IMG/VR virus record: IMGVR_UViG_3300045285_000115
Span: 4,053 to 68,052 of that record
Direction: 5' to 3' (one strand)
Source of the DNA: a virus
Taxonomy: Duplodnaviria; Caudoviricetes
Length of the DNA stretch: 64,000 nt
Shown piece after piece: positions 1,526 to 51,819 of this stretch (its first letter is position 1; the number at the start of each line of letters is the position of its first letter). The notes under the pieces were generated by a model, which saw only the letters and a program-made list of their open reading frames with translations, was not told the DNA's origin and did not search any database. Both the position numbers and the translations under genes were made by a program.

Positions 1526-1652
1526 GTTTGGTTCATGAGAGGGGAGCGCGCATTGATGGCATCACCGGTCACCGTTCTTTCTTCGCGCCCAAGATCGAGG
1601 CCGCGGGTGACCGCCCCGACTCTCGCACGGTTTGCCCTCTCATGAACCAAAC
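1526..1652. repeat. inverted pair of bipartite intergenic repeats (empty, 32 bp between arms)
   Basis: GTTTGGTTCATGA-N27-CGGTCACC (1526-1573) and GGTGACCG-N26-TCATGAACCAAAC (1606-1652). Confidence 0.85.
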
Positions 1653-1669
1653 AAATCCCTAAACCCGCC

Positions 1670-1864
1670 ATGCCCGACAACGTCATCTCGTTATCCTCCC
1701 ACCGCGCCCTGCAAGACAACGGGGCGCGAGAAGCCTTGATCGAGATTCTGCGGGAGCGATTCTTCATCCCCGATCATGAGGATGCTGCGGCTCGATCTGA
1801 CACGTTGTTGCAAGCGCTGTGGTCGCATGGCTACAAGGTGGTGCCGGTTGAGGCAGAGAAATGA
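1670..1864 (+). CDS. hypothetical protein
   Basis: 64-aa ORF; ATGA overlap with next ORF. Confidence 0.65.
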   Translation: MPDNVISLSSHRALQDNGAREALIEILRERFFIPDHEDAAARSDTLLQALWSHGYKVVPVEAEK

Positions 1865-2019
1865 CGGCAGCGCCGAAAAAGCGCAAGCGCAAACCGAAAC
1901 CCCGGCGCGTTTGTATTTGCGACGGCGACAAGCATTGGTTCACCGATGGGGAACATAAAATCCTGCGCGTACTTCATAAAACGAATCCGTTCTGCAAGGC
2001 CCATGTTGAGCAGTTTTAG
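1861..2019 (+). CDS. small basic Cys/His protein
   Basis: MTAAPKKRKRKPKPRRVCICDGDKHW...; hand-translated, ATGA coupling. Confidence 0.5.
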   Translation: MTAAPKKRKRKPKPRRVCICDGDKHWFTDGEHKILRVLHKTNPFCKAHVEQF

Positions 2020-2028
2020 TTATGGCGT

Positions 2029-2208
2029 TTAATCCCGATGCTGCGGGCAATAGTAGCGCGTTTCCTTGTCTGATTTCACGTACTGCCAGCCCTTCAACTC
2101 GAATATCCTCGGCGGGTCCATGGCACCCTGCGGGATCGTTATCGAGCGGTGACAGCCGTCGTGGTCGCACTCGAAGGTGATCCGGCCGCCGTGAACGGAA
2201 AGGATCAT
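2029..2208 (-). CDS. small Zn-binding protein
   Basis: MILSVHGGRITFECDHDGC...YYCPQH; ATGA overlap with upstream stop at 2205. Confidence 0.55.
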   Translation of the reverse strand: MILSVHGGRITFECDHDGCHRSITIPQGAMDPPRIFELKGWQYVKSDKETRYYCPQHRD

Positions 2209-3113
2209 TTGTGTGGCAGAACGGCATAAATGGTGACGGCCTGACTGAGTACCAGAACCCCCATCATTATATAACTGACGATCTCGCCGCGGCCCATGCC
2301 GCGCTCTTTCGCGCCAGCCTCGGACTTTTCTACCGTCCTCAAACTTTTTGCCAGTTCGCGAATAGCCTCCGCATTGGTGTCCGCCATCTTGCTCATAGAG
2401 CGCGTCATAGTTTCCTGCATCGAAACCATACCAGAGCCCAAAGAACTTAGAGCATTCGCTAGCTGCGGATCAGAAATGCTGGTCTTGCCCTGGGTCACGT
2501 CCAGTCGCGACTTGATGTCGTTAAACTGCATTTCCGAACTTTTGCGCAACTCAGCAATTTGCGCTTCAAAATTCTTTCTAACCTCCGAAAGAAACTCCTG
2601 CCCCTGTTTGATGAGAGCCGCAAATCCCGCCTCCATCTTCGTACTGGCGGCCGTGTTGCTGTCGTTCGTGGCGATGGCCTGCTTTTCCTGCGCCTGTAGG
2701 GCGGCCGTCAGCGCCTTGTCATTCGATCCGAACTGATTGTTTACTCCGTTGAACTTCTCTTTCGTCTCTGCAATGTGGCCGTCAACCTTGCCCTCTAACT
2801 CCGCGAAGGCGGTGTCAATCTTTCCATCGACCTTCGCAAGCGCCCCCTCCATTCTCGCCGTCATTTCGGCCCGTAAACCACCAACCGCCCGGTCGATGTC
2901 GGTCGGCACGCGGACCATATCTTCATGTTGAAGTTTGGTCGCCGTGTCGATTCCTGCAAAGCGCGTGTGGACCGACCGAAGCTCTGTCTGAAATTCATTG
3001 CGCAGAGCAACAAGCGGATCGCCCCGCGATACCTGCATCAAAGCTTGCGACAGCTTAGTAAGAATATCGCGATCGCCAGGGGTTTGAATTTCGCCGTCAA
3101 TGCCGTCCGCCAT
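2205..3113 (-). CDS. coiled-coil protein with C-terminal membrane anchor
   Basis: 302 aa, helical heptad composition, hydrophobic C-terminus. Confidence 0.75.
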   Translation of the reverse strand: MADGIDGEIQTPGDRDILTKLSQALMQVSRGDPLVALRNEFQTELRSVHTRFAGIDTATKLQHEDMVRVPTDIDRAVGGLRAEMTARMEGALAKVDGKIDTAFAELEGKVDGHIAETKEKFNGVNNQFGSNDKALTAALQAQEKQAIATNDSNTAASTKMEAGFAALIKQGQEFLSEVRKNFEAQIAELRKSSEMQFNDIKSRLDVTQGKTSISDPQLANALSSLGSGMVSMQETMTRSMSKMADTNAEAIRELAKSLRTVEKSEAGAKERGMGRGEIVSYIMMGVLVLSQAVTIYAVLPHK

Positions 3114-3122
3114 GCCCCTCTC

Positions 3123-3400: not shown

Positions 3401-4225
3401 TCAGCGCGGCACAGGGAATAGAAACGCCACCTTGCCCATGTACCGCGTGCCGGTGTCAAGCCCACCAGTGAAGCCAGGAGCCCCGCCGCCGCTGGCGCCG
3501 AGGTTCGTCACCTCGAAGCCGCGCATCGGCCACGACACCATCGCGGACACGTCCACGGCATTGCCGGTAGGCTTGCCCGTCGTCTTGTCCAAGATTTGCC
3601 AGATCGCCCCGAGCTTGAGCATGGGCGCAAACGCCACGTCGGCCCCGTTGACGCTGCCGACACTGCCAGTGACACCGAACGCCTCAAAACCAGCCGCGAT
3701 GTAACTGCGCGGCCCGGCCTCCACGTTGACGCCGGCGGGCGGAATCGGCGTGAACGTGGGGAAGGTAATGCCACCGATACCGAGCCCGCCGAGGGTGCTG
3801 GAGATCATCGAAAGCGGATCGACGGTCCCGCCATAGCGAAACTCGACGGTCGAACTCCAGCGGCTCGCGATGCCGATGGGCTGATTCGCCACGACCTCGC
3901 CAGCCGAGATGTTCTGATAATCGACGCAGGCTTGCAGGCCGAGCCATTGCGCGGCGTGGCCCTTGATGTAGCCGAAGCACCCGCCGACCGTGCCGCCCGA
4001 AGCCGTCAGCTTGCCGCTCACAAGCGAGTTGGCGAAGAGCGGCGAACCGCTGGCCGAAGCCTGTTGTACACCCGCGCCGGCCTCGATGCCCCAATAGAAG
4101 CCTGAGGTATCGACGAAGAAAACCGGGGGTGCCTTGACCGGCATGACCGGCAGATCGGCCGCACCGGCGGCGTTCCCTGCGAGGATAAAGGCCATACCAG
4201 CGTAAAGAAGAGTCTTGATTTTCAT
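3401..4225 (-). CDS. outer-membrane beta-barrel protein, Omp25/Omp31/RopB-like
   Basis: signal peptide then ADLPVMPVKAPP...SGFYWGIEAGAG, amphipathic strands, aromatic near C-terminus. Confidence 0.75.
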   Translation of the reverse strand: MKIKTLLYAGMAFILAGNAAGAADLPVMPVKAPPVFFVDTSGFYWGIEAGAGVQQASASGSPLFANSLVSGKLTASGGTVGGCFGYIKGHAAQWLGLQACVDYQNISAGEVVANQPIGIASRWSSTVEFRYGGTVDPLSMISSTLGGLGIGGITFPTFTPIPPAGVNVEAGPRSYIAAGFEAFGVTGSVGSVNGADVAFAPMLKLGAIWQILDKTTGKPTGNAVDVSAMVSWPMRGFEVTNLGASGGGAPGFTGGLDTGTRYMGKVAFLFPVPR

Positions 4226-4377
4226 TTGTCCGTCCCTCCGAACCGCCCCCATTGGCGGAATGGGTTTGATAAGAATCCGATGACATGATTCGGGAAAGGG
4301 GCGAACGGGTTAGCCACGTGGATTTAAGGAATGGTGTGGTTTTTGGGTGACAGGCGGGGTTGATTCCCGATTACCGA

Positions 4378-8737: not shown

Positions 8738-8787
8738 TTCTTCGGCCGCCGTTGGTAACTCACCGTTTGCCGCATCACCAAATCTCA

Positions 8788-8834
8788 GGTGACCGATGAA
8801 CGAACGACTGTCGCGCCCCTCTCATGAAACAAAC
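8788..8834 (+). repeat. bipartite intergenic repeat copy
   Basis: GGTGACCG-N26-TCATGAAACAAAC. Confidence 0.85.
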
Positions 8835-9415
8835 CATGCTTATCCGGTTAAGACACACACCCTCTACATCTTGTGTCATGGAACTTCCTGTATAGGCGCG
8901 AAGATAACGTTGTCGGCCTCAGCTTCCGCGAGCGCGGCTTCAAGTGCGGTCATCTGATCGCTATGCACAATCCAGCACTTTTCGCCGTCGTCCCCCTGAA
9001 TGCCGACCTGCCTATTGTTGCCAGCGCGATAGGTGTCGAAACGCATTTGGATGATCTCGCGCGCGGCAGCATGAAGGGTCCGAAGCTTGCCGACTATCCG
9101 TTCCAATTCGTTGAGGGCGTCGTCCAACGCGTTGGGTGTCGATTTTCCTCGAAACTGGCCCCTTGGTGCCATTTGATCGCCCAGCGCGGCCGTCCGCTCG
9201 CCGAGCGAATAGGTCGCCTTCTCAGCCCGTTCGGTTTCCTCCACCGGATGACCGGGCCAGAAAAAAGTGCAGATAACGCTGCCGCCAGCATCTTTGACGC
9301 ATGGGCCGTCCAAATAGCCGGATTCTTCGAAACGCCACGGCTTTGGCCAGAAGTGCGACCATTCTTCGTGCGACATCAACATCTAGTCCCTGTGTGTGTT
9401 AACCGGATAAGCATG
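8835..9415. mobile_element. non-autonomous mini-transposon (MITE-like) with passenger gene
   Basis: perfect 17-bp TIRs CATGCTTATCCGGTTAA (8835-8851, 9399-9415) flanked by 8-bp direct repeat AAACAAAC (8827-8834, 9416-9423). Confidence 0.75.
8876..9382 (-). CDS. hypothetical phage protein (passenger of mini-element)
   Basis: 168 aa; GIQGDDGEKCWIVHSD motif. Confidence 0.75.
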   Translation of the reverse strand: MLMSHEEWSHFWPKPWRFEESGYLDGPCVKDAGGSVICTFFWPGHPVEETERAEKATYSLGERTAALGDQMAPRGQFRGKSTPNALDDALNELERIVGKLRTLHAAAREIIQMRFDTYRAGNNRQVGIQGDDGEKCWIVHSDQMTALEAALAEAEADNVIFAPIQEVP

Positions 9416-9426
9416 AAACAAACCAT

Positions 9427-9621
9427 TCATTCTGCCGCTTCCTCATATCCCGAACGCAGCCCCAGCGCTTTGAGAATCGTATCGCTCGGAGGCTTGCGCC
9501 CATTGACGACTTTGTTCACGTAGGACTGGCTTAATCCGTGTGCCTTCGCCCAGGCGCTTTCGCTTCCGGCCGTTTGGCAGGCTGTAGCAAGGCGTTTGCG
9601 GACATCTTCGCTCGAAAGCAT
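9427..9621 (-). CDS. XRE/Cro-like HTH regulator
   Basis: SESAWAKAHGLSQSYVNKVVNGRKPPS; 64 aa, no S24 peptidase domain. Confidence 0.85.
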   Translation of the reverse strand: MLSSEDVRKRLATACQTAGSESAWAKAHGLSQSYVNKVVNGRKPPSDTILKALGLRSGYEEAAE

Positions 9622-9628
9622 GGGGTGT

Positions 9629-9658
9629 CTAGTACCACAGGGGCATAAGATAGGTCAA
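9629..9658 (-). promoter_or_regulatory. leftward sigma70-type promoter, near-leaderless
   Basis: TTGACC-N18-TACTAG ending 7 nt before the HTH ATG. Confidence 0.55.
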
Positions 9659-9662
9659 CCGG

Positions 9663-9677
9663 GAACCAAATAGGAAC
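9663..9677 (+). promoter_or_regulatory. alphaproteobacterial LexA (SOS) box
   Basis: GAACCAAATAGGAAC = GAAC-N7-GAAC between divergent promoters. Confidence 0.6.
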
Positions 9678-9728
9678 ATAAATCACGAAAACGTGAATAG
9701 GAAGATCGCCCGTTATGCCCCTTTGGGA

Positions 9729-9756
9729 TTGACTATGCCTTTTCGGGCTTTATACT
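9729..9756 (+). promoter_or_regulatory. rightward sigma70-type promoter
   Basis: TTGACT-N16-TATACT upstream of + operon. Confidence 0.7.
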
Positions 9757-9784
9757 CCCCATCATCGAACGAAGGGGAACGGAC

Positions 9785-9964
9785 ATGACTCGAACACTTG
9801 CGATTATCACAAAACAAGGTTGCTTTGCGGTTGAATGGGAACGGCGCAACGGGCGCGTCTATCGCACGGCTTTCTCACACTATCTGCATGAGGCACTCGC
9901 TTGGCAGAGCATCATCGCACGGCACGACTGGTGTATGTCCGCGCATCCAGGCCCCGTTTCATGA
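9785..9964 (+). CDS. hypothetical protein
   Basis: 59 aa, RBS GAAGGGGAAC, hand-translated. Confidence 0.5.
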   Translation: MTRTLAIITKQGCFAVEWERRNGRVYRTAFSHYLHEALAWQSIIARHDWCMSAHPGPVS

Positions 9965-10098
9965 CCACAGCCTGGGAGCACAACACTTAACCCCCTCCCC
10001 GCCCCGGCTGGCGGCAACCATCCGGGGCGGGCTTTGGAGAGCACGAATACGGGGCTTTTTGGCAAAAGCGCCTCAAGCAACGAAACGGGGAGTTCCAG

Positions 10099-10464
10099 AT
10101 GGCTCAAGGCAGGACGATCCCTATCCGGGGAAGTGATTCGCCGCAAGGGCAAAGGGTGGTGGTGGGGATATTCTTCACCCGCTATCCCCAGCCGAAAATC
10201 ACCCCGATCGCGACGGCCGCGGATAATTCGATCCTCGCGGAAGCCGTCCCGATCAAGACCGAGAACGGATTTCCGGGATGGATTGTGCGGCTGCGGGCGC
10301 AAGGTTCCGCGCTGCCCAGGTTCAAGGACTCGGAGAATGTTTACCCTTCGTTAACCGCGGCCGAGGATGCCTATTGGCGCCAGTGCGAGGCCGAGCGGTT
10401 CCGTGAGGATGACGTGATCGAATGGGGCCATTGGCAAGAGGCCGTGGCGATCGCAGCGGAGTAG
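10099..10464 (+). CDS. hypothetical protein
   Basis: 121 aa, GGGAG RBS. Confidence 0.65.
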   Translation: MAQGRTIPIRGSDSPQGQRVVVGIFFTRYPQPKITPIATAADNSILAEAVPIKTENGFPGWIVRLRAQGSALPRFKDSENVYPSLTAAEDAYWRQCEAERFREDDVIEWGHWQEAVAIAAE

Positions 10465-10469
10465 CGAAG

Positions 10470-10691
10470 ATGGGCCAACAACTCGTCGCGCGCATCAAAC
10501 GCCGCAGCAAATATTGGGGCCAGACCGCGCCCAATCAATGGTTCGATGTGCGCGTAGTCGATGACACCCTCTGTCGCCTGCGCGGAAACAATAACAACTA
10601 CCGCCTAAGTGACGTGGTTCTCGGCGTGCGCCTGGATGATAACTCCGTCATCAATCTGGTGAACGGAAAACAAGAAAGTTTTGTTTCATGA
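10470..10691 (+). CDS. hypothetical protein
   Basis: 73 aa; stop TGA lies inside the TCATGA of a repeat copy. Confidence 0.65.
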   Translation: MGQQLVARIKRRSKYWGQTAPNQWFDVRVVDDTLCRLRGNNNNYRLSDVVLGVRLDDNSVINLVNGKQESFVS

Positions 10692-10725
10692 GAGCGGAGC
10701 GGCGCGGATAGCGTCATCGGTCACC
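10679..10725 (-). repeat. bipartite intergenic repeat copy (left arm of pair)
   Basis: TTTGTTTCATGA-N26-CGGTCACC. Confidence 0.85.
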
Positions 10726-10751
10726 GGAAGGGACCAGAAGGGGGAAAAAAG

Positions 10752-11321
10752 ATGGCCAAGCAGATCAAGATCGAAAACGCCAATGCCGAGAAACAGCACT
10801 TCGGCTGGTGTGTGTCGTGCCACTTTGAAGGCGCCCGCTATCACATCTGGCTTGACGGCGAGACGCTAGCAATCAAGTCCAATAATATCAACAAACCGCC
10901 GACGCTCTATAAGAACGCCCTTGTTAAGCGGAATGAGCCGGGGTTCTTCGAGTGCCGCAGGCTAGATGCCACGAACGCGACCAACAAACCGTTAGTCGAT
11001 GCCATGCTGGATGTCTTTCATGGCGGACTAAAAGAACAAGCAGAATTGCACGCACACCAGATAGAACAAAACCGCCTTGCGGTTGCCGCCGATGAAGCGC
11101 GCATCAGCCGGATCAAGGAAGCGGGGCCACAATTATTCGAGGCATTGCGAGAAATCTGCGAATTTTGGGCTTATGGACTCGCAAAGCCAGACGGCACAAA
11201 TCCTAGTGTGGAAGATAAGGAAAAGGTCGAACGGATAGCGTTGAAGGCGCTTCATACGCTTCACGCCGCCGATCCTTCCTACGTGCATACGCTCCCGGCC
11301 TCAGGTGACCGCCCCGACTAA
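10752..11321 (+). CDS. hypothetical protein bracketed by inverted repeat pair
   Basis: 189 aa; C-terminal SGDRPD* is encoded by the repeat. Confidence 0.75.
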   Translation: MAKQIKIENANAEKQHFGWCVSCHFEGARYHIWLDGETLAIKSNNINKPPTLYKNALVKRNEPGFFECRRLDATNATNKPLVDAMLDVFHGGLKEQAELHAHQIEQNRLAVAADEARISRIKEAGPQLFEALREICEFWAYGLAKPDGTNPSVEDKEKVERIALKALHTLHAADPSYVHTLPASGDRPD

Positions 11322-11349
11322 CCTACGGGCACACCTCTCATGAACCAAA
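11304..11349 (+). repeat. bipartite intergenic repeat copy (right arm)
   Basis: GGTGACCG-N26-TCATGAACCAAA. Confidence 0.85.
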
Positions 11350-11467
11350 TCGGTGCAGCCATGTTCACCTTCCTCGACCGCCTGATCTCTCCCGTCTGTT
11401 TCGTCGCTCTTCTCCTTTCCCTCTCCACGGTCCTGGTGTGGACCGGGATCATCGTGAGGTAGGGAAG

Positions 11468-11656
11468 ATGGGCACGTACATCATTGTGTTGCGGCTGCCG
11501 ACTGGCGAGATCGAGGCGGTTCGCGAGGAAGGCGCCCACATCCGCACGTTCAAGGGCCTCCGGGCCATCGTGGATTTCATCGGCAAACAACCGATGTTCG
11601 TCGGAACAGAATGGAACTATCAGTTTGTACGACTCGATGACGACATGACTGACTGA
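11468..11656 (+). CDS. hypothetical protein
   Basis: 62 aa, AGGGAAG RBS. Confidence 0.65.
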   Translation: MGTYIIVLRLPTGEIEAVREEGAHIRTFKGLRAIVDFIGKQPMFVGTEWNYQFVRLDDDMTD

Positions 11657-11697
11657 AACTGCTTTGGCAAAAGCGCAACGGGGAAAGGACCACGGCA

Positions 11698-14168: not shown

Positions 14169-14169
14169 G

Positions 14170-41722: not shown

Positions 41723-42637
41723 TTACGATGTCGGCGTTTCCCACCAGAGAGCGCGCGGATCGTTGTACCCAAAACTGTAACGTTCATAGGCCTTGACAAG
41801 AAGATTGTCCGTGACGTTATCAACCCATAAATCGCTCTCGTATGGAATTCTCAACATATGTATTAGCCCATCGATATTCGTCGTCAGTCCCCACGCGAAG
41901 TTGGAGGTCAAGAAGTCGAGCACGATGAAGCCTTCCGGCAGGCCGCCCGAGAGCGTGAGGATGGCGTTGACATCGTTCTCGGCCGTGCCGGGGCGAAGCT
42001 CGGTCTTGGTCAGCCGGATGGCGATGCCTTCGAGATTCGGCGGCACGATCAGCCGGCGGCCGCGCGAGAGAATGCGCAGGCCGCGCTCGTTGACGAACTG
42101 CGTGCGCACGTTCGTCATGTTGGCGAGCAGGGTCGATTCGTTGAGCGACTTCGGGGTGGACGAGGTATTGGCCCAAGTGCCGCCGTCGTAAGGATGAGCG
42201 GTCGAGGCGAGCGCGACGCCATCGCCGATCACCGAGGTATTGTAGGTGGTCGCGAGGTTGAGGATGTTGGCACCCTGGATTTCCTTGAACTGGGCGAAGG
42301 CTTCTTGCAGTTTCAGGTTGGTTGGGTTGAACTGCGCCTTGTAGATATTGTCGTCGATTGCCTTGCGGGTGATGGCGTAGCCGAGCGCGACTTCGACATG
42401 CACGAACGCCCAGGTGAAGCGCTCGCCGGCGTTGTTGTCGAACTGGGTGGCAGCGCCTTCGTCCTTGAGTTGGGGAAGGCCGACGAACGCCATCTGGGTC
42501 GAGCGTTCGACCGCCAACTTAGACGTGTGAGTTGAAAATACCTTGTCCCACTGACGGGGAATCATTTCGTACGAACCGCGTACGTCGAACAACCCTGGGA
42601 GGAGTTCCGAGCGGATGTTAGCTAGAGCAATGGGCAC
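41723..42637 (-). CDS. major capsid protein (GpT-like family)
   Basis: 304 aa, strongest codon bias, GLPQLKDEG, LIVPPNL, ERYSFGYNDPR. Confidence 0.85.
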   Translation of the reverse strand: MPIALANIRSELLPGLFDVRGSYEMIPRQWDKVFSTHTSKLAVERSTQMAFVGLPQLKDEGAATQFDNNAGERFTWAFVHVEVALGYAITRKAIDDNIYKAQFNPTNLKLQEAFAQFKEIQGANILNLATTYNTSVIGDGVALASTAHPYDGGTWANTSSTPKSLNESTLLANMTNVRTQFVNERGLRILSRGRRLIVPPNLEGIAIRLTKTELRPGTAENDVNAILTLSGGLPEGFIVLDFLTSNFAWGLTTNIDGLIHMLRIPYESDLWVDNVTDNLLVKAYERYSFGYNDPRALWWETPTS

Positions 42638-44636: not shown

Positions 44637-44785
44637 AGCCTGCCTCCGAGTAGTAGGAAGAGCAGAAGCACGATCAGGATGACGCCGACGATACCGAGGC
44701 CGCTGCCGCCAATATGGCCACCATAAAAACCAAACCCGCCGCCGAACAGCAGCAGAATAATCAGGATCAGAAGGATGAGGCTCAT
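44633..44785 (-). CDS. DUF3309-like small membrane protein
   Basis: MSLILLILIILLLFGGGFGFYGG...GIVGVILIVLLLFLLLG. Confidence 0.65.
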   Translation of the reverse strand: MSLILLILIILLLFGGGFGFYGGHIGGSGLGIVGVILIVLLLFLLLGGRL

Positions 44786-45073
44786 GGCCTATTTCAGATG
44801 GCGAGCGCAATCATGTGCGCCTCCTTTGGGCGATTCGCGGATCATCATAGCATAAAACAACGGTTCGCTCGCGGGCCGGGCGCTATTCCGACTATCCTAT
44901 TGGCACATAACAAGCTATGCGCGTTAGCTACTCGCGCCAGCCGATTAGAGGAGCCAACCAACATTCCGGGTTATCAGCCCGGACTCTGCGGCACTTCCCG
45001 AGTTCTAGAACCATCGGTTCGTTGCGTGTCTGCTTTCCACGCCGCCGCGAGCGAAGGGGGAGAATAGCGCGAA

Positions 45074-45364
45074 TCACGCCGCCTTGGCAACAGGCTCCGC
45101 CTTCTTGTGCGGAGCCGCCAGCGCGAACGGGCGCGGGGCCGCATCGTCCCATTTGGCGAGATACGGGATGCCGGGGGCTTCGAGCACCGGGGCGGCATGC
45201 CAGCCGACGATCAGGAGGTCCAAGGTCGCGGAATGGCCGGGTTTGTCACCCTTGGCTTTTGCCGCCGGGTGTACGTCCATGACGATCGCCGGATAGGCTT
45301 TGTCGGGTTCATCGGTGCCCAGCGGATAGACGAATACGATGGCGCCAGCATGGGGATCGGACAT
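45074..45364 (-). CDS. hypothetical protein
   Basis: 96 aa, AAGGAGA RBS. Confidence 0.7.
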   Translation of the reverse strand: MSDPHAGAIVFVYPLGTDEPDKAYPAIVMDVHPAAKAKGDKPGHSATLDLLIVGWHAAPVLEAPGIPYLAKWDDAAPRPFALAAPHKKAEPVAKAA

Positions 45365-45437
45365 GGGGAGTCTCCTTGGGGTTTATAGGGAGGAACGCGC
45401 AGGAAGGTAAAAGGTTGCAGGCGAAGGAAGATTTAAG

Positions 45438-45486
45438 GTTTGGTTCATGAGGGACAGGAGCGTGGGGAGGGCGCGGGGCGGTCACC
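45438..45486 (-). repeat. bipartite intergenic repeat copy (left arm)
   Basis: GTTTGGTTCATGA-N28-CGGTCACC. Confidence 0.8.
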
Positions 45487-45519
45487 CAAGTGCCCGGAAG
45501 GGAAGCGGAAAATCAGGTA

Positions 45520-45966
45520 TCACCGGCTCGTAATGACCATCAGGCCGCTGCGATTACTTCCCGGCGTCGCTATTTGCTTGTGCAGCGCCGTCATGTCGGG
45601 AAACTCGACGCGCTCACGTCCTTCATAGATTTTGTCGCCAAGCTCGTCCTCGTCAGGCATCAGCTCATCGCACGGGAAGTAGAACTCAGTCGGATAGCCA
45701 GTCGCTTCCCAACATTTCCCGTCAAAAAACCAATAGGAGCAGTAGGTCGTGTCGCTAGTGTCCCATGGCCACGGCCAGCCCTGCTCAGGGAACGTCGCGT
45801 CGTCGCGCTTCTTCAAAAAGACCTCGACCGCCTTCCGATAATTGGCCTCGGTCTTTGCTTTGAGGATGTAGCCCGCGATGCCATCGCGGTAACCGTCCCA
45901 AGCAATCGAGCCGATCCATTCGGCGGCGCTGCCTTTACCAACGTAGAAATCTGCTCTCGTTCCCAT
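45520..45966 (-). CDS. hypothetical protein bracketed by inverted repeats
   Basis: 148 aa MGTRADFYVGKG...WIGSIAWDGY. Confidence 0.8.
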   Translation of the reverse strand: MGTRADFYVGKGSAAEWIGSIAWDGYRDGIAGYILKAKTEANYRKAVEVFLKKRDDATFPEQGWPWPWDTSDTTYCSYWFFDGKCWEATGYPTEFYFPCDELMPDEDELGDKIYEGRERVEFPDMTALHKQIATPGSNRSGLMVITSR

Positions 45967-46010
45967 TGTGCTTATCCTATAGTTGGTAACTCACCGTTTG
46001 CCGCATCACA

Positions 46011-46029
46011 CTCTCATGAACCAAACCTT
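46011..46029 (+). repeat. half copy of repeat (outer box only)
   Basis: CTCATGAACCAAACCTT is a perfect 17-bp IR of 45435-45451. Confidence 0.7.
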
Positions 46030-46033
46030 CGCT

Positions 46034-46246
46034 CTAACTTCCTGCCGATACCTTCTCGGCTGCATCAATCGCCGTGGTGACGAGCGCCAGCACGTAGGCA
46101 TCGATCTGCGCCCGATGCGCCTGGATTCCCTCGTCGACCTTCCGACGCATGAATACCGGGGCCATTTTTTCCGCGTCCGCAATGTCGGCGTCGACGAGCG
46201 GGCGAACCGCCTTCATGGCGGCATCGATCTTAGCTTGGCTTGCCAT
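46034..46246 (-). CDS. hypothetical protein
   Basis: 70 aa, GGAG RBS. Confidence 0.7.
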   Translation of the reverse strand: MASQAKIDAAMKAVRPLVDADIADAEKMAPVFMRRKVDEGIQAHRAQIDAYVLALVTTAIDAAEKVSAGS

Positions 46247-46248
46247 CT

Positions 46249-46521
46249 CTATTTCTCCATTGGTGGGGTGCGAGTTGCGCTGTCGTAGAAGTGTTTGACG
46301 ATAATGCCGAGCAAAGTCATCAGGCCACTAATGGTTCCCGCGATGATGCCGACGACCGGGCCGTCCGCGGGAACCTTGACAAACAGGCACACGAGCGTGA
46401 GACCAATCACGGCGAAACAGATGGTCAGCGCGATGATGCCCTGAATGGTGAGGCGGTCGAGGAACACAAGTTTCACCGGCTTGTCGTCCTTGGGCGTGGC
46501 CAGCGGATCAGGCATAGACAT
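46249..46521 (-). CDS. two-TM membrane protein (holin candidate)
   Basis: two hydrophobic helices, charged C-terminus. Confidence 0.5.
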   Translation of the reverse strand: MSMPDPLATPKDDKPVKLVFLDRLTIQGIIALTICFAVIGLTLVCLFVKVPADGPVVGIIAGTISGLMTLLGIIVKHFYDSATRTPPMEK

Positions 46522-46536
46522 TAAGGTTTTCCCGGT

Positions 46537-46713
46537 TCATCTGCGGCGACTGTACCGCATCGAATAATTACCGCGGAAACGGCGGGACCAATCCCGCACG
46601 CGCAGCCAATGGCTCCAGTCTGCCCGCGTCCATTGGCCGTTCGGGCACGCCGCACGGACGGGGAGTACGATCAGCAGCGCGGCAATAACGATGGCAAAGC
46701 GCATGGCGATCAT
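46537..46713 (-). CDS. small secreted protein
   Basis: signal peptide MIAMRFAIVIAALLIVLPVRAA. Confidence 0.5.
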   Translation of the reverse strand: MIAMRFAIVIAALLIVLPVRAACPNGQWTRADWSHWLRVRDWSRRFRGNYSMRYSRRR

Positions 46714-46745
46714 GTTTACCCGGACAGCCCTACATCTTGTGTTCA

Positions 46746-46994
46746 TCAGCCGCCTCCGAGACAGCGTTTCGCGGTCCAATCGTGTGCGCGTTGAGCCCAT
46801 TGGGGTTCCCATGGCAACGCAAGAAACGGATGGATCAGCGCGTTGTGAACAAATTTCCAGAAAAACCACGAGGCAGGGTGGCTTCTGGCGCCGTAATAGA
46901 TGCATTCTCTGGCACAAGGCGAAGCTTCGAGCGGTCCACGCGTCTCGGTGCCACATCCTTCACAGTGCCACCCTCTTTCTGTCGCGATCAACAT
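46746..46994 (-). CDS. hypothetical protein
   Basis: 82 aa with CxxC. Confidence 0.6.
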   Translation of the reverse strand: MLIATERGWHCEGCGTETRGPLEASPCARECIYYGARSHPASWFFWKFVHNALIHPFLALPWEPQWAQRAHDWTAKRCLGGG

Positions 46995-47112
46995 CTAGTA
47001 GGTCTCAGCGCTTGTGTGTGTTCTTACGCCAAGTTCCGGGCGCGGAGAACTTGCGCGCCGCCCATACGGCGAGACACAACAGATAGAGCGGGACGAAGAT
47101 CAGGCGCGCCAT

Positions 47113-47547
47113 TCAGTTCTCCGCGTAGAACGGACGGTAATGATTGCCATAGCCCCATCGCCAAGGAAAGGGAAGGCCAGGATGGCCGCCGGGGCGCACG
47201 CCCGCCCACATGATCCACGCCCATGTGGGACGCCCGATCAAGGTCACGCAACGCCACAGAACGGCGTCGGCTCGCTCACGTTCATCGGAAGTTCCACCGC
47301 GCCAATAGGCAAAATCATGGGTCACACAACAATGCTCGAAGGAAGGTGATTCGCGAAAGAGGATACGCCAGAAAAGCGACAGGCCCCCGGAACAACCATC
47401 GGAGGTGAACCGGTAGTCGGGCTGCGGTTCAATGAGATCGCTGGCGGCAAGAAGATCGGCGGGGATGGTAATTCTCTGGGCGGGAATGACATAGGGGGCG
47501 GTGAAGAAGGCCGCAAGCAAACAAAGAAAGGTAAGGATTTGTTTCAT
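47113..47547 (-). CDS. secreted phospholipase A2-like protein
   Basis: signal peptide; FTSDGCSG...CCVTHDFAY...AD..L..CV. Confidence 0.6.
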   Translation of the reverse strand: MKQILTFLCLLAAFFTAPYVIPAQRITIPADLLAASDLIEPQPDYRFTSDGCSGGLSLFWRILFRESPSFEHCCVTHDFAYWRGGTSDERERADAVLWRCVTLIGRPTWAWIMWAGVRPGGHPGLPFPWRWGYGNHYRPFYAEN

Positions 47548-47894
47548 GAGAGCATGTCATAGCGTGACGAAGGGGATGGGATATTTTCGATATCTGGGCA
47601 GTTTCTGTCGGGGGAAATGACAAATAATGGCGGGCCTGCTTCCCGTTCGGGGGGAATTTCAACGCCCAAGACACGCAACTTCGCCTCCAAATCCTCGATA
47701 TTTTTCTCAATTATTTGAAAGGCGACTCCTGCGGCTTGGCAAACAAACGATGACTGATCTGAATGAATGGTCTCACATCCAGAAAAATTCATCCGCACCT
47801 CGGAAGCACCAGCGCGCACTTTTGCCAGCAACTCTTTCTGCTCTCGCCACCACTTGGCAAGAGTTGCTGCGGTCCCACAATCATCGAGTTTCAT
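47544..47894 (-). CDS. hypothetical protein
   Basis: 116 aa, AT-richer. Confidence 0.6.
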   Translation of the reverse strand: MKLDDCGTAATLAKWWREQKELLAKVRAGASEVRMNFSGCETIHSDQSSFVCQAAGVAFQIIEKNIEDLEAKLRVLGVEIPPEREAGPPLFVISPDRNCPDIENIPSPSSRYDMLS

Positions 47895-47903
47895 TTTGAT
47901 GCC

Positions 47904-48875
47904 TCATCGTGCGGCCCGCTGACTGCTTTTAGGCTTAGCCGGGCGGCTCACTCTCTGATTGGTGCGCACCACACGTACCTTCTCACGACCGTTAGGTTTT
48001 GTTTCCTCGGCAACGCGAAGAAATTCTGCGACTTCCGGCCTTAGCACGCCGACGTCACCCGACAAAACGGGTTTGATTTCTTCGACCAACGCTGGGGCAG
48101 GTTGAGGTAGGCTAATCGGCAACGCCGGCGCCAACGGTTTGACTTCCGCCTCGGGTGGCATCCGCGGCACCTGCACGATGGTATTGGCCGTCATGTCGAG
48201 ATAGCGATGGCCGTAATCGAACGGCCCGACGTGGGAAATCTTGTGGCCGATCGCCGCCCATACCTGCCCGCCGCACATGTTGTGACGGATGCAGAAGGAT
48301 AAATCCTCCGACACGACGCCGCGGGTCGGGATGTCCATCTTGTCGAAGAACCGGAGCAGGCGCGTAGCGCCCGCCGACTGCATGATGCCCTTTGCCGGAT
48401 GGAGATCAAGGCGTCCGTCGATCAAGTCTGGAAACCGCGCGATCATCGGGGGAATCGCGTCCCGGCGGATCAGGCAGCAGCCCATACCCACACCCTCGAC
48501 CTTCATGAAGTCGGAGCGGCGTTCCGCCAAGGTTTCCCCCGTTCCCGAACCTGCCCATGAGGTCGGCAACTGCCGCTGCGGATAGATCGAACCGACGATC
48601 GGCTCATTGAACAACAGCATGTCGAGGATGAGATCGGGCGGAATCCCCATGTCCGCATCGATGAAGAGAAGATGCGAACAATCCACCAGCCGATCGAACC
48701 AGATGGTGAGCGCCATGTCGCGCAGTTCGGCGATGTCGGGAAACGACAGGGTGGAAATACCGAAGCCTATGCCCTTCGCCTGCAACGCCTGGCCGATGGC
48801 GTGGGTCGAAAGAAAAGTGGTGGCGGTGATGTGCTGGCCATAGCCGGGCACGAAGGTGTAGACGCGGTGGGACAT
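47904..48875 (-). CDS. GT-A fold glycosyltransferase-like protein
   Basis: HLLFIDADMG; GVGMGCCLIRRD; SEDLSFC. Confidence 0.8.
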   Translation of the reverse strand: MSHRVYTFVPGYGQHITATTFLSTHAIGQALQAKGIGFGISTLSFPDIAELRDMALTIWFDRLVDCSHLLFIDADMGIPPDLILDMLLFNEPIVGSIYPQRQLPTSWAGSGTGETLAERRSDFMKVEGVGMGCCLIRRDAIPPMIARFPDLIDGRLDLHPAKGIMQSAGATRLLRFFDKMDIPTRGVVSEDLSFCIRHNMCGGQVWAAIGHKISHVGPFDYGHRYLDMTANTIVQVPRMPPEAEVKPLAPALPISLPQPAPALVEEIKPVLSGDVGVLRPEVAEFLRVAEETKPNGREKVRVVRTNQRVSRPAKPKSSQRAAR

Positions 48876-49487: not shown

Positions 49488-50419
49488 CGCATCCCCACCC
49501 GTGGAATATTGATCACGTTCGCGGGCGGCAGCAATTGCCCGACCCAGCGCTGTTGTTCCTCAGGCGGCATTCCGGCGATCAGTCCGGGCACCAGATTCAT
49601 CGCCTTGATCTTGGCGCGGATATAGCGCTCATCGGGCGGTATCGTGCCGCCGTTCGATGAATTCCATTCCATGTCGCGGGCCTGTGCCCGGCATTGTTCG
49701 TTGATCCAGCGCGAGCGCCATTCGATGTGGGGATATTTCGACTTGATGACGGTCTTGCGCCAAGGGGCTTCCTCGAAGTCCTCGCCGTCGACGATCGCGT
49801 GAGCAGCCATCCGGCGGTGCAGATAGCCGGCATCGAAGAACGTCGCCCACCAAGCCAACTCGCGGATGTTCTGGGTCGGGGGTTTTCCCTGCTTGTCGTA
49901 GGCGACCGGGCAATCGATCACATGCTCGCGGTCGATCAGTTTGGCGATGTCGTAGACCCAATGGTCCGAGAACCAGTAGGGAAAAAGCGGCGGGAAGTAA
50001 TAGGTCAGCTTGTCGGCGAGCTTGCGCGTCATGGCGAAGATATCGGGGAACGAGGCGTTGCGCAGATGATTGACGACGAAGCCGTAACCGTCGGGAAACG
50101 TTTGTGCGGCCTGACAAATCTGCTCGTCGAATCCCTTCGCCGCGAACGCGGTATAGTCGGAAAGGTTACAGATCAGGTCGCAGGGATGGACAAGCGCGCG
50201 ATTATATTTCTCGCCTAACGTATCCTCGCGTGGATACACCGAGACGAGCACGTGCGGCGCGGCGAACCATTTGAGCTTCGCGCGCGTCGCCTCGTCGTCC
50301 TCGTCAACCGAGACCATCAGCACGGTCTCGGGTAACGTGATATTGGCGATGGTCGATTCGATCGTGCGCGCCAGGACTTCAGGGCGGCCGCGGGTGACGA
50401 GATTGATGATGAGTTTCAT
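49484..50419 (-). CDS. glycosyltransferase family 2-like protein
   Basis: TRGRP...SVDEDD...TLGEKYN...WFSDHW. Confidence 0.7.
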   Translation of the reverse strand: MKLIINLVTRGRPEVLARTIESTIANITLPETVLMVSVDEDDEATRAKLKWFAAPHVLVSVYPREDTLGEKYNRALVHPCDLICNLSDYTAFAAKGFDEQICQAAQTFPDGYGFVVNHLRNASFPDIFAMTRKLADKLTYYFPPLFPYWFSDHWVYDIAKLIDREHVIDCPVAYDKQGKPPTQNIRELAWWATFFDAGYLHRRMAAHAIVDGEDFEEAPWRKTVIKSKYPHIEWRSRWINEQCRAQARDMEWNSSNGGTIPPDERYIRAKIKAMNLVPGLIAGMPPEEQQRWVGQLLPPANVINIPRVGMR

Positions 50420-50697
50420 AGGGCACTATCTACTGGTTTGAAGGTAAGGTCGTTATATTTCGGGCCCACTCGAGACTCCAAAGCATCATCGTTAGGGGAA
50501 AGAACCAACGTTCGCCACCGTTCCTCACCGACAAGAGCCGCTCTAGCATCATCCCAAAAACGCCTATTCATTATTCTTTCTTCCATGACACGGAAGCCAT
50601 TTGTGTAGATATATTCCGCCAATGGACCGGCGGCGATCGTGACGGGCAGATTTCGATCAAATCGGGACAGGGCATCAATCAGATCACCAACGGTCAT
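50416..50697 (-). CDS. hypothetical protein
   Basis: MTVGDLIDALSRFDRNLPV, common phage start motif. Confidence 0.7.
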   Translation of the reverse strand: MTVGDLIDALSRFDRNLPVTIAAGPLAEYIYTNGFRVMEERIMNRRFWDDARAALVGEERWRTLVLSPNDDALESRVGPKYNDLTFKPVDSAL

Positions 50698-51423
50698 TTA
50701 TCCCTCCACATGCACGATGAAACGGCGTCCGGTAATGCCATAAGCGCCCCAATCGGAATTGCCGCCACGACCTGGGATGCAATAGCGATCACTGATTTCC
50801 TGCCACGCCTTCTGTTGCCCGAACTTCGGCGACCCGCAATTGCAGTACCAGTCATCGAACAGGATGGTGGCGCCGTCCGCGATCATGTTGCGGGCGAACA
50901 GCGGCTCCAACGCATCCATCGTCGATTCGTAATAGTCGCAATCGACGTGAATGAGCGCGAACTTACGAGGCGCAGGAATCGCTTTGACCGTATCCTTGAA
51001 CCATCCAGGAACCACGACTGTCGGCACGAACCTATTGCAAAGTTTCCGCACGGCATCGGGCGAACCACCCCGGGCCACGCCCGGCCCCCATATCCGATTC
51101 TTGATATGCGGGCTTTGGCTGTCGACCAAATTGTCAACCTCGGGAAATCCTTCGAACGAATCGAAAAGCCACAGGGTTCGGTCGGTCGTCTCGTTCAGGA
51201 TTTCGTTGGTGGCGTATTTCATCACCGTCGCATAGAGCGCGCGCGCGATGACTTCGGCGGAGCGACCTTGGTAGCAGCCGAATTCGGCGATGTCGCCCTG
51301 TACCCCGCAGGTCACGATGTATTGCACGGCCAGAATGAGCGCGCGCGGATCGAAGTCGGCAAAGCCGACGTAGCCGTAATCGGGCTGTTCGGCAGGAGCG
51401 GCGAGGGTGGGTGATTCGTTCAT
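50698..51423 (-). CDS. TylF/MycF-family O-methyltransferase
   Basis: GDIAEFGCYQG; LFDSFEGFP; GWFKDT; IHVDCDYY; ILFDDW. Confidence 0.9.
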   Translation of the reverse strand: MNESPTLAAPAEQPDYGYVGFADFDPRALILAVQYIVTCGVQGDIAEFGCYQGRSAEVIARALYATVMKYATNEILNETTDRTLWLFDSFEGFPEVDNLVDSQSPHIKNRIWGPGVARGGSPDAVRKLCNRFVPTVVVPGWFKDTVKAIPAPRKFALIHVDCDYYESTMDALEPLFARNMIADGATILFDDWYCNCGSPKFGQQKAWQEISDRYCIPGRGGNSDWGAYGITGRRFIVHVEG

Positions 51424-51554
51424 AGATATCCAAATGTATTTGGCACAAGCCAGAATGAATGCGACGGCCAGCGATGGTCACCACTGTAGCAGGCCCATGC
51501 CCACTTCGGAACACCCTTCCATCGGACTCGGAAAATAGTTACCATGGTTCTCAC

Positions 51555-51731
51555 TTATCCAACAGCGTTGAACGCATGCGCATTTTGTAGGCCGAAAAGC
51601 TCATCGGCCGCATGTTCGATTATGTCCTTAGCTTCTGCGGAGAGGGCGCAACGTTTGGCGAGCCTGCGCAGTTCATCGGGCAACGCGCGAGGATCGCGAA
51701 GTTCGCGAGCGTGCACAACTTTACTATTCAT
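51555..51731 (-). CDS. hypothetical protein
   Basis: 58 aa, GGAGCGGAAG upstream; hand-translated. Confidence 0.45.
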   Translation of the reverse strand: MNSKVVHARELRDPRALPDELRRLAKRCALSAEAKDIIEHAADELFGLQNAHAFNAVG

Positions 51732-51771
51732 TGCTTCCGCTCCCGTCGTGAAAGGAACATCACCGCCCTCA

Positions 51772-51819
51772 GATGACCGATGACAGAAGCAACAAACACT
51801 CCGCCATCATGAACCAAAC
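51772..51819 (+). repeat. bipartite intergenic repeat copy
   Basis: GATGACCG-N27-TCATGAACCAAAC; spacer close to the 14881 copy. Confidence 0.8.

Follow-up and report, generated by a model that had tools for sequence, protein, structure and literature searches.

A previously undescribed bipartite element occurs in 17 full copies in the 68,052-nt genome of an uncultured soil phage, 16 of them within the window, the whole stretch of 64,000 nt analysed here; with one degenerate and three half copies, the total comes to about 20. All copies lie at gene junctions, far beyond chance, and several overlap a stop or start codon. We tentatively read the element as a directional, protein-recognised boundary signal of promoter type, spread and homogenised by recombination, which would resemble the PeSL cassettes of T4-type phages in role without being a PeSL.

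Anatomy and catalogue of the element

The element spans about 50 bp and has two boxes: the left one, (CTCA)GGTGACCG, is separated by 26-28 nt of spacer from the right one, CTCATGAAMCAAAC, and sequence conservation ends with the right box. Spacer length holds in 19/19 aligned copies; conservation is confined to the two boxes, and the spacers, free in sequence, fall into two sub-families (A and B). The initial annotation had described a dispersed bipartite element of at least 15 copies, with this spacing, two spacer sub-families and every copy at a gene boundary, all of which was upheld: the strict pattern GGTGACCG-N24-30-TCATGAACC has six exact matches against none in 100 shuffles, the right box with up to two mismatches has 17 matches against 1.28 expected, and an nhmmer profile made from the element copies themselves, with which the full copies were counted, recovers every copy listed there (E 1e-7 to 1e-14). 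Elsewhere than in the elements, TCATGA and GGTNACC occur at the expected frequency.

No consensus RNA fold was obtained on either strand of the element unit, and Rfam gave no match to it. Because the boxes are conserved, the spacer is free, and neither a fold nor an Rfam family was found, the element is most likely a site on double-stranded DNA read by a protein, and not an RNA, as the proposal of a protein-bound site had it. A likeness to REP/BIME arrays is not supported, because the single unit is not palindromic.

The copies and their associated genes are as follows (window coordinates unless marked genome).

Genome 2387-2409 (-): left-box half copy, left of the window
Genome 2880-2934 (+): full copy, left of the window
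1525-1573 (-): full copy, family A; left member of an empty outward-facing pair
1601-1653 (+): full copy, family B; right member of the empty pair, with an ATG at 1670, 17 nt on
8751-8778 (+): 28-nt companion repeat (the "U-box"), also at 45982-46009 and left of the window
8782-8835 (+): full copy, family A, inverted with respect to the leftward early operon; a 597-nt insertion interrupts its right-box tail AAACAAAC, a duplicate of which lies at 9411-9423, where the HTH gene 9427-9621 has its stop 3 nt away
10679-10729 (-): full copy, family A, inverted with respect to the rightward operon; left arm around gene 10752-11321; its right-box TGA doubles as the stop of gene 10470-10691
10752-11321 (+): cassette gene inside an inverted pair, 189 aa, no family; its stop TAA falls within the right-arm spacer
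11298-11350 (+): full copy, family B1, sense; its box ATG opens a 40-aa membrane peptide
14169-14221 (-): full copy, family B2, inverted; left arm around gene 14235-14534; right box abutted by a TAA stop plus G
14235-14534 (+): cassette gene inside an inverted pair, 99 aa, no family; ends GDRPD* within the right-arm spacer, like gene 10752-11321
14511-14558 (+): full copy, family B1, sense; 19 nt from box ATG to the start at 14572
14875-14929 (+): full copy, family A1, sense, solo; start 14966 is 37 nt downstream
16185-16236 (+): full copy, family A, where the rightward block and the late operon meet in their only convergent junction; gene 15994-16230 has the box TGA as its stop, and the stop of 16243-16491 is 6 nt off
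22230-22284 (-): full copy, family A2, sense; forms the left arm of an empty pair and lies 17 nt ahead of the start of a 945-aa ejection protein
22371-22421 (+): full copy, family A3, inverted; gene 22424-22990 stops 1 nt away
25649-25702 (-): full copy, family B1, sense; start at 25632, 17 nt on
25744-25793 (+): degenerate copy, inverted; adjoins the stop of 25797-26060, at the end of the translocated tail-fibre module
31550-31597 (+): full copy, family A3, inverted, solo, at the start of the translocated module; stop of a 687-aa virion gene 6 nt before, start of gene 31071-31520 28 nt away
45437-45491 (-): full copy, B-like, sense; start 45364 is 73 nt on; left arm around gene 45520-45966
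45520-45966 (-): cassette gene, 148 aa, no family, between copy 45437-45491 and the half copy at 46011
46011-46027 (+): right-box half copy, left box and spacer missing, fused directly to the U-box 45982-46009
47537-47553 (-): right-box half copy; a 144-aa ORF begins at its ATG and has a signal-peptide-like N-terminus and a weak DUF1353 match
51766-51820 (+): full copy, family A1, inverted, solo; border of a slot with content unlike that of the related phage G001

The inverted pairs that enclose nothing (1526-1652, 22231-22422, 25650-25793) and those around one gene (10752-11321, 14235-14534, 45520-45966) agree with the initial annotation, as does the half copy at 46011; the copy at 25744 stands as a degenerate one, and a half copy placed at 47528 belongs at 47537-47553. 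The U-box invariably lies inward of a (+) copy, with a leftward gene downstream of it; that at 8751-8778, together with the adjoining left box, is 100% identical over 43 nt to the copy left of the window. The copy at 1525-1573 (-) comes after a 262-aa gene and a parS-like site.

Ordering along operons and occurrence in other phages

Copy orientation relative to transcription is about 50/50 in this genome, yet the copies are ordered along operons: an inverted copy stands 1-7 nt after a stop codon, and a forward copy then stands 10-73 nt before the next start. Since the inverted copies come directly after stops, each junction has the order inverted copy, accessory gene (if any), forward copy. 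Three sense copies lie exactly 17 nt ahead of a start codon, and three have the leader AAAT(C/A)(C/T)CTAA in common. All seven close pairs are (-,+), and thus outward-facing, with no face-to-face pair; strands alternate in 15 of the 19 steps between neighbours (permutation p 0.0065). Each of the four divergent early units has an inverted copy at its end, 0-7 nt past the stop in three of the four and about 136 nt past it, beyond the parS-like site, in the fourth. Short uORFs that end -27 to +14 nt from the next start begin at the box RTG; elsewhere this RTG is the start of real small membrane or secreted proteins. Sigma70-like sites are few (3 in 20 kb against 7.7 expected, one being the switch promoter at 9729-9756), which leaves the long operons without any other visible internal promoter.

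The motif was not found in GenBank phages or plasmids, and the strict pattern has no occurrence in 185,579 bacterial and archaeal species genomes. It is present in a few other uncultured phages, among them one (G009) sharing no detectable protein over the 25.6 kb available for comparison, which argues for a functional signal and not a merely inherited one. Nine of the 11 full copies in other phages are co-directional and lie 9-50 nt upstream of starts (three of three in G001/G006, two of three in G007, four of four in G009, none of one in G008), a sense bias with a one-sided binomial probability of 0.03, worked by hand. This sense bias, the occurrence in an unrelated phage and the strict order along operons were not part of the initial annotation. 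Relatives carry solo copies only, mostly sense. The box-to-box distance extends over 19-30 nt in distant phages, GTG replaces the box ATG in two phages, and a canonical intrinsic terminator lies 6 nt past one sense copy in G009.

Recombination between copies and exchange of modules

Gene conversion has taken place between copies, and relatives differ in their presence or absence. Between distant loci, copies share 91-100% identity in either orientation: 14511-14558 is 98% identical to 11299-11345, 25649-25702 is 98% identical, inverted, to 11306-11349, and 14875-14929 is 91% identical to 51768-51821. The copy at 11298-11350 is orthologous to G001 51700-51648, with identical boxes, flanks of about 73% identity and a replaced spacer, which indicates boxes under selection and a spacer altered by gene conversion.

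Comparison of empty and filled sites among relatives, as the initial annotation had suggested, revealed differences at the copies. G001 lacks the pair 22231-22422, the whole 210-nt pair region being a 3-nt junction there, and L029 has an additional copy at a junction only 3 nt long in both our phage and G001. Several copies are missing in close relatives, or modules are swapped at those sites; the tail-fibre module, translocated relative to G001, has copies at both bounds (25744-25793, 31550-31597), and the variable slot 51423-51860 has one at its border. Where homology to relatives is lost, the break falls at a stop codon or within a flanking gene, at no fixed element position. The coincidence of copies with synteny breaks and empty or filled sites lends support to the suggested analogy with T4 PeSL shuffling. 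Homologous recombination would have amplified and homogenised the family in this genome, and the repeated copies may act as homology linkers for the gain, loss and movement of modules or small accessory genes.

Candidate functions and related systems

The element may be a lineage-specific directional signal, read by protein on double-stranded DNA, that marks transcription-unit boundaries inside operons. Forward copies (left to right box) would most likely be factor-dependent internal promoters of a non-sigma70 type, or alternatively transcription-plus-translation start modules, with a leader of 9-40 nt from the right-box end to the next start; at some copies the box ATG would itself be the start. 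The inverted-then-forward order would occupy the usual position of terminator, then promoter. Promoter activity, any barrier formed by inverted copies and which factor binds are points on which we infer rather than observe. In this genome, the short distances from sense copies to starts, the uORFs and small proteins begun at the box RTG, the scarcity of sigma70-like sites, the inverted copies that end the early units and the ordering of copies, with seven (-,+) pairs that would be divergent promoters, speak for this reading. The non-canonical promoter suggested in the initial annotation gained support from the relatives, whose copies are mostly sense and just upstream of starts; on inspection, neither boxes nor spacing fit a sigma70 or sigma54 consensus, as had been stated, nor those of sigma32, sigma28 or ECF factors. 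Besides this misfit, several points count against a promoter: a C-rich stretch just upstream of the box ATG is unlike a -10 element; GTG variants hit the would-be critical A if CATGAA were the -10; a box distance of 19-30 nt is looser than one rigid polymerase contact allows; a terminator closely follows the sense copy in G009; and half of the copies in our phage point against transcription, so that as promoters they would run antisense into early regulators and the late operon. Nor was a candidate sigma factor or activator identified, the search yielding HTH, wHTH and zinc-ribbon proteins only.

Seven pairs of one topology with none of the opposite, the folding of pairs into long hairpins, the absence of an entire pair at the 3-nt junction of a close relative, near-identical copies at distant loci and the motif in an unrelated phage would also suit a non-autonomous, MITE-like selfish repeat, the mobile unit being the outward-facing inverted pair (127-672 nt), sometimes with a passenger gene, the solo copies decayed halves, and the mobilising enzyme supplied by the host or another phage; the genome holds another small TIR element (8827-9423) with an 8-bp duplication. 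We consider this unlikely: no pair has a target-site duplication, the outermost bases vary (AAAC, AAAT, AACC, AAAA) while internal ones are invariant, pair arms come from different spacer sub-families, the orthologous copy keeps its boxes and swaps its spacer, relatives have only solo, mostly sense copies, no transposase was found in the genome, and plasmids, GenBank phages and bacterial genomes gave no matches. Sites at which a site-specific recombinase captures and shuffles accessory cassettes, comparable to pdif modules or integron attC, would explain the alternating orientation, the single gene enclosed per pair and the copies at synteny breakpoints and variable slots, but are very unlikely, as the 26-28 nt box interval far exceeds any known crossover region, a single unit is without the internal dyad needed for attC, homology breaks at stops or in flanking genes and not at a fixed element position, and family searches, which covered part of the genome, found no tyrosine or serine recombinase or integrase in the scanned ORFs. 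The missing duplication, the unlike arms and the lack of a recombinase or transposase in the roughly 100 ORFs scanned likewise tell against the cassette end of the initial annotation.

A dispersed operator or roadblock, at which dimers of a phage or host DNA-binding protein, bound to the short palindromes GGTNACC and TCATGA, silence transcription units or insulate them, in the manner of stoperators, phiC31 CIRs or KorB operators, would accord with two palindromic boxes around a free spacer, with intergenic copies in both orientations, right behind stops and at the ends of all four early units, and with the HTH, wHTH and zinc-ribbon proteins encoded. It seems quite unlikely, however: an orientation-free site leaves the 7:0 pair topology and the sense bias elsewhere unexplained, the motif is unlike the inverted repeats noted in the immunity-switch region by the initial annotation, and it is common to a phage without a shared protein in the 25.6 kb available. 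Signals at the RNA level are highly improbable. Inverted and forward copies might pair in polycistronic mRNA as RNase III processing or stabilising stems, and closed pairs do fold at -73 and -101 kcal/mol (z -4.2 and -5.0), but solo copies, the rule in relatives, are unable to pair, and no fold is conserved inside a unit. Alternatively, forward copies might be translational coupling cassettes (SD-like AGGTGA, RTG, 10-codon mini-ORF, ATGA overlap); the left box AGGTGAYC, complementary to the 16S 3' end, the left RTG in frame with the box TGA in 4/5 sense family-A copies, and the left-box ATG that starts an MT-A70 gene all point this way, whereas the left RTG is missing in family B and half of the family-A copies are out of frame.

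Returning to the promoter-type boundary signal, among its closest counterparts are the promoter-early stem-loop (PeSL) cassettes, mobile regulatory units in T4-type phages (Arbiol et al. 2010, PMC2839356). These combine an exact sigma70 consensus with a G/C stem-loop terminator, are used as promoters, and are read as promoter plus transcription barrier, with inter-copy recombination shuffling modules (PMC2839356). Like them, our element is a repeated intergenic cassette reaching from the stop of one gene to the start of the next, clustered around small ORFan genes and variable regions where relatives differ by insertion, deletion or replacement; unlike them, it has no sigma70 match and no stem-loop within the unit, and half of its copies are inverted and form closed outward-facing pairs. 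Start-associated sequences (SAS) and extended SAS (ESAS) of Cluster K mycobacteriophages (Pope et al. 2011, PMC3203893) also invite comparison; SAS contains the ribosome-binding site, at a distance of 3-8 nt to the start, ESAS consists of a 17-bp inverted repeat whose spacer measures 4-13 bp, and almost all of the sites point the same way (PMC3203893). Both they and our element are phage-lineage-specific composite motifs with variable spacer and 10-20 copies per genome, just upstream of starts, kept upstream of orthologous genes and with no known function, but ours combines two unlike boxes, at a distance of 26-28 nt, with a longer leader and occurs in both orientations.

The stoperators found in Cluster A mycobacteriophages each consist of one 13-14 bp site; they are related to the immunity operator and point in the direction of transcription. 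They share with our element asymmetric sites dispersed over short intergenic gaps (20-30 stoperators, in a temperate phage); ours is bipartite, unrelated to the switch-region repeats and of mixed orientation. The pdif sites of Acinetobacter plasmids, 28-bp XerC/XerD sites with a 6-bp core, likewise hold gene modules between sites of alternating orientation, but nothing Xer-like is present in our phage. Correia elements of Neisseria are MITEs with outward promoters, 26-bp matching TIRs, a TA duplication and hundreds of chromosomal copies, and their transcripts fold into RNase III substrates. They too are short units (about 100-190 bp) with inverted-repeat bounds at gene junctions, the ends of which can be outward promoters; our pairs, unlike Correia elements, are without a duplication, have arms of unlike sub-families and in some cases enclose a passenger gene, and solo copies predominate in the relatives of our phage.

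Anatomy of the element and its placement at gene boundaries

The element consists of two boxes held at a nearly fixed distance; the consensus of 19 copies reads ctcaGgTGACCG, a spacer and CtCTCATGAAcCAAac, and the spacer measures 26, 27 or 28 nt without exception. A strict form of the pattern matches 6 times against 0 in shuffled sequence, the right box with up to two mismatches matches 17 times against 1.3 expected, and a profile built from the copies recovers 17 full copies in the genome (E 1e-7 to 1e-14), with halves in addition. The two spacer sub-families claimed by the initial annotation are present, each with near-identical sub-groups: family A has GATGAY at its start and CGCTCCSC at its end, and family B begins with GCCCCGAC.

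No consensus secondary structure was found on either strand (RNAalifold: 0 pairs on one strand, 3 non-covarying pairs on the other), nor any dyad within the single unit; Rfam returned 0 matches at gathering score across the whole window, a tRNA search was likewise empty, and TCATGA and GGTNACC occur at their expected frequency away from the elements. Taken together, these observations argue for a bipartite site at the DNA level, as had been supposed from the sequence alone. An RNA structure or known RNA as the identity of the element was rejected on the same blank searches, as was restriction-site avoidance, given the palindrome frequencies, and a conserved spacer mini-ORF as a general function, the frame being kept in only 7 of the 15 family-A copies.

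The phage record of 68,052 nt (IMG/VR) is rated complete. Its late genes extend leftward on the minus strand, from the right end as far as 16243, and four early units (T1 to T4) diverge from two switch regions; the sigma70-like promoter at 9729-9756 is the only good one found by consensus scan in the first 20 kb.

Main genes and transcription units of the phage
59059-60825 (-): terminase, late
56244-58532 (-): portal, late
41723-42637 (-): major head protein, late
26843-29983 (-): tail fibre, late
16481-22213 (-): ejection proteins, late
Just left of the window, leftward: early unit T1, with an HTH protein, a 130-aa Cys-rich protein and a 67-aa zinc-ribbon protein
Left of the window to 1389, rightward: early unit T2
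From 9621, leftward: early unit T3, whose first gene (9427-9621) encodes an HTH protein
9785-16230, rightward: early unit T4
11698-12531: exonuclease (family search)
Left of the window: MT-A70 and DUF5131 genes (family searches)
A TylF methyltransferase (family search)
23208-23903 (-): free-standing HNH endonuclease, 231 aa (Pfam HNH, 1.7e-13)

The HNH gene lies within the late operon, in a slot unlike that of the relative G001. At the head of the same operon, 61902-63541 (-) encodes a 304-aa winged-helix (IclR/MarR-like) protein, 77% identical to its G001 counterpart, and an N6_N4 DNA methylase, with the small terminase immediately downstream; the winged-helix protein is a candidate regulator. 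Pfam and PHROGs scans of about 100 ORFs of this phage brought up neither a recombinase or transposase nor a sigma factor or RNA polymerase.

All copies are located at gene junctions, as had been claimed, against a crude coding fraction of 0.86. Forward copies, in which transcription reaches the left box first, stand 10-73 nt ahead of a start codon (17 nt at 1652, 22231 and 25650; 37 nt at 14929; 73 nt at 45438), and in some the box ATG doubles as the start codon, at 11340 for a 40-aa membrane peptide and at 47547 for a 144-aa protein with a signal-peptide-like N-terminus; the start codon of the MT-A70 gene is the ATG of a left-box half copy. In inverted copies the right box lies 1-7 nt past the stop at which the preceding gene ends, or the copy itself contains that stop (9423, 10691, 14170, 16236, 22422, 25793, 31597 and 46026), a 21-nt stretch, TAAG-GTTTGGTTCATGAGAGG, being identical in three of them. 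Left of the window, in this phage and its relative alike, an inverted copy supplies the C-terminal codons of the zinc-ribbon gene.

Forward and inverted copies are about equally frequent in this genome, yet their succession along it is ordered. Neighbouring copies alternate in strand at 15 of 19 steps (permutation p 0.0065), and all seven pairs less than 700 nt apart are arranged (-,+), right boxes outward, with none (+,-). Along an operon an inverted copy is followed by nothing or by one small family-less gene and then by a forward copy, which confirms the earlier description of inverted pairs around zero or one gene.

Genes of no known family enclosed by an inverted and a forward copy
10752-11321
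14235-14534
45520-45966

Inverted copies ending the four early units
Genome 2880-2934
1525-1573
8782-8835
10679-10729

By analogy, the succession of stop codon, inverted copy, forward copy and start codon is the layout of terminator-then-promoter boundaries; a scan for intrinsic terminators near the copies gave nothing above shuffle level. Family and orientation are also associated, B being mostly forward (5/6) and A mostly inverted (8/10; one-sided Fisher p 0.025, calculated by hand).

Copies in other phages and at mosaic borders

The motif was not found in GenBank phages or PLSDB plasmids (with a full pair as blastn query, 50,697 phage and 72,556 plasmid records yielded chance matches only), a scan of 185,579 bacterial and archaeal species, each represented by a single genome, gave no match to the strict 21-base bipartite pattern, and a sequence-based literature search for the motif returned only primers. 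A host repeat or known IS end was rejected on the blastn and species-genome searches.

The motif occurs in nine metagenome contigs and in a small number of IMG/VR records. Two contigs, G001 and G006, represent one close relative (portal 78%, head protein 95% identical), with three full copies, all forward, and one inverted half copy. G007, with two forward copies and one weak inverted copy, has nothing in common with this phage beyond DUF5131, MT-A70 and a weakly matching terminase, G008 has a single inverted copy, and G009, a 25.6-kb fragment with its genes on one strand and no protein common to other carriers, has four copies, all forward, of a variant CTCGTGAACCAA with left box GGGTGACCGC. 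A phage-encoded factor common to this phage, G007, G008 and G009 was rejected, the three proteins shared with G007 being the only ones in common. Of the 11 full copies in other phages, nine run in the same direction as the genes and precede a start by a short distance. At 17364-17450 of G009 a gap of 6 nt separates a forward copy from the canonical intrinsic terminator behind it (CCCTCC, loop, GGAGGG, T-run), and 8 bases further on the next gene begins with its ribosome site and start, a layout that recalls a lambdoid late promoter with its terminator.

The orthologous copies at 11298 and at 51700 of G001 have identical boxes in flanks of about 73% identity, and differ in the spacer; that at 11298 is a family-B1 replacement, a sequence which two other loci of this phage share at 98%. 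Kept boxes around a swapped spacer show that the boxes are under selection and that the copies undergo gene conversion.

Several copies mark differences between close relatives. Empty and filled sites, which the initial annotation had proposed to look for, were found at 22213-22424, where 210 nt (an inverted-forward pair with a 17-nt leader) correspond to a 3-nt junction in G001 with the flanking gene ends conserved, and in a third relative (L029, head protein 88% identical), where an inverted copy follows the homologue of 39151-39501 at what is a 3-nt junction in this phage and G001. The tail-fibre module (gene 31071-31520 to the fibre) ends the late operon behind a forward copy in G001; in this phage its neighbours are the 687-aa virion gene and a 193-aa gene, and it is bounded by 31550(+) and 25744(+)/25650(-). 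Slots 45364-47904 and 51423-51860 have contents unlike G001, with copies at their borders. Recombination among the copies is shown by their amplification and homogenisation and by this position at mosaic borders. For the proposed model of cassette capture the outcome is divided: indel borders do coincide with copies, but homology to relatives ends at stop codons or tens of bases into flanking genes, at no fixed point of the element, and neither recombinase nor transposase was found in the ORFs scanned.

The module at 25797-31520 (gene 31071-31520 to an 87-aa gene) and its counterpart at 44713-47954 of G001 occupy different places in the late operon, and the tail fibres are only 37% identical, over part of their length. 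A portal protein search detected no prophage relatives in bacterial genomes. The putative outer-membrane moron at 3401-4252 (-) has no Pfam match; its homologues, at most 77% identical and one labelled "outer membrane immunogenic protein", lie on phage-sized metagenome contigs and lead also to one MAG, and the element is absent from two phages that carry them, both unrelated and GC-richer, one with a baseplate (myovirus-like). Co-mobility of element and cassette gene was rejected, as the only homologue of 10752-11321 is in an unrelated phage lacking the element.

Candidate roles and comparison with known classes

The repeat family is real and undescribed, and its kind is that of phage mobile regulatory or boundary cassettes, with a putative mechanism. 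Quite possibly, though short of an even chance, the element is a directional promoter-type boundary element of transcription units, a reading suggested by the sense bias, the short regular distance to starts, conservation that ends at the right-box edge, pairs that are exclusively divergent and the small number of canonical promoters. The signal would be read by a factor outside the known sigma consensus classes. A scan and inspection of the alignment found no fit of the sigma70, sigma54 or ECF consensus hexamers at the spacing of each promoter family, in agreement with the first impression for sigma70 and sigma54. No sigma70-like site lies within any copy by consensus scan, and the copy alignment has no -10-like hexamer 16-18 nt from the left box. 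A plain promoter does not explain the inverted copies directly after stop codons, which may be convergent promoters insulating units, polar protein roadblocks or by-products of recombination.

A MITE-like repeat, with the pairs as its units, would account for the pairs, seven outward-facing arrangements of 127-672 nt that resemble terminal inverted repeats bounding a short unit. We consider it unlikely: MITEs make target-site duplications, whereas the outer flanks of all seven pairs have none, the pair arms are unlike each other, the tips vary and relatives carry solo sense copies. No related autonomous element or transposase was found by Pfam and PHROGs, and similar DNA is absent from plasmids and GenBank phages. 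A dispersed operator or roadblock site is decidedly unlikely; stoperator arrays are oriented with transcription and resemble the immunity operator, whereas these copies are oriented about 50/50 and are unlike the switch region at 9622-9785. We would give very little weight to a recombinase site, for which neither an enzyme nor a plausible crossover core was found. Integron attC sites have internal imperfect inverted repeats (R''-L''/L'-R'), a GTTRRRY core and an integrase, whereas the boxes here are not mutually complementary and the right box ends in GTTTGGT, which departs from GTTRRRY; the ORFs scanned included no integron integrase. An RNA-level signal is equally improbable. Transcripts of the closed pairs are predicted to form hairpins, long but imperfect (-73 and -101 kcal/mol, z -4.2 and -5.0). 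The suggested REP/BIME likeness did not hold, as REPINs are imperfect palindromes with a hairpin and a RAYT transposase, whereas this unit has no dyad and no Y1 transposase was found in the ORFs scanned.

In its role the promoter-type element resembles, by analogy, the PeSL cassettes, which are mobile regulatory cassettes (PMC2839356), and as in these its copies mark the edges of insertions, deletions or replacements that distinguish close relatives; PeSLs, however, contain a sigma70-consensus early promoter inside the repeat and a stable stem-loop terminator per unit, both lacking here. At the level of an outside chance, the element may form a phage-borne cassette system, in which a directional 50-bp site in alternating orientation would insulate and express single accessory genes and serve as a recombination substrate, for a putative enzyme or for the exonuclease and annealing system of the phage, by which cassettes are captured, inverted and exchanged between unrelated phages of one host; such a system would be a functional analogue of the integron or pdif module for phage morons.

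To our knowledge, cis-elements for the exchange of modules or morons in mosaic phage genomes have been described for a very small number of groups, with T4-type PeSLs and lambdoid boundary sequences as the examples. The present element is compact and well delimited, occurs in uncultured soil and peat phages, and combines features rarely found together: precise placement between stop and start, a fixed inverted-then-forward order around single accessory genes, and presence in phages without shared genes. A factor-dependent promoter would constitute a new promoter class for its host group, and would help to predict the transcription units of metagenomic phages; were the inverted copies barriers, one sequence would be promoter or insulator according to its orientation.

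Neighbouring repeats and structures

A perfect chromosomal-type parS palindrome (1392-1407, TGTTTCACGTGAAACA) separates the 262-aa gene from the inverted copy at 1525; Pfam detected no ParB domain in the 262-aa protein. Behind a 223-aa late gene, a non-coding stretch of about 100 nt (51860-51960, -) is 89% identical to G006, against about 75% elsewhere, and folds into a long stem whose arm differences between this phage and G001/G006 are compensating; it has no Rfam match and may be a structured RNA, or else a site of processing, in the late operon.

The right box of the copy at 8782-8835 is split by a 597-nt insertion (8827-9423) that has the box tail AAACAAAC at both sides (8822 and 9411), 25-nt inverted ends matching at 96% (8835-8859 against 9415-9391) and one family-less 168-aa ORF. 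A second repeat, the U-box (GGTAACTCACCGTTTGCCGCATCAC; 8751-8778, 45982-46009 and genome 2855-2897), adjoins the left box of three (+) copies, with a leftward gene start 14-20 nt downstream, and two of its loci match at 100% across 43 nt. At 46011 the U-box is joined directly to the right box, the left box and spacer being absent.
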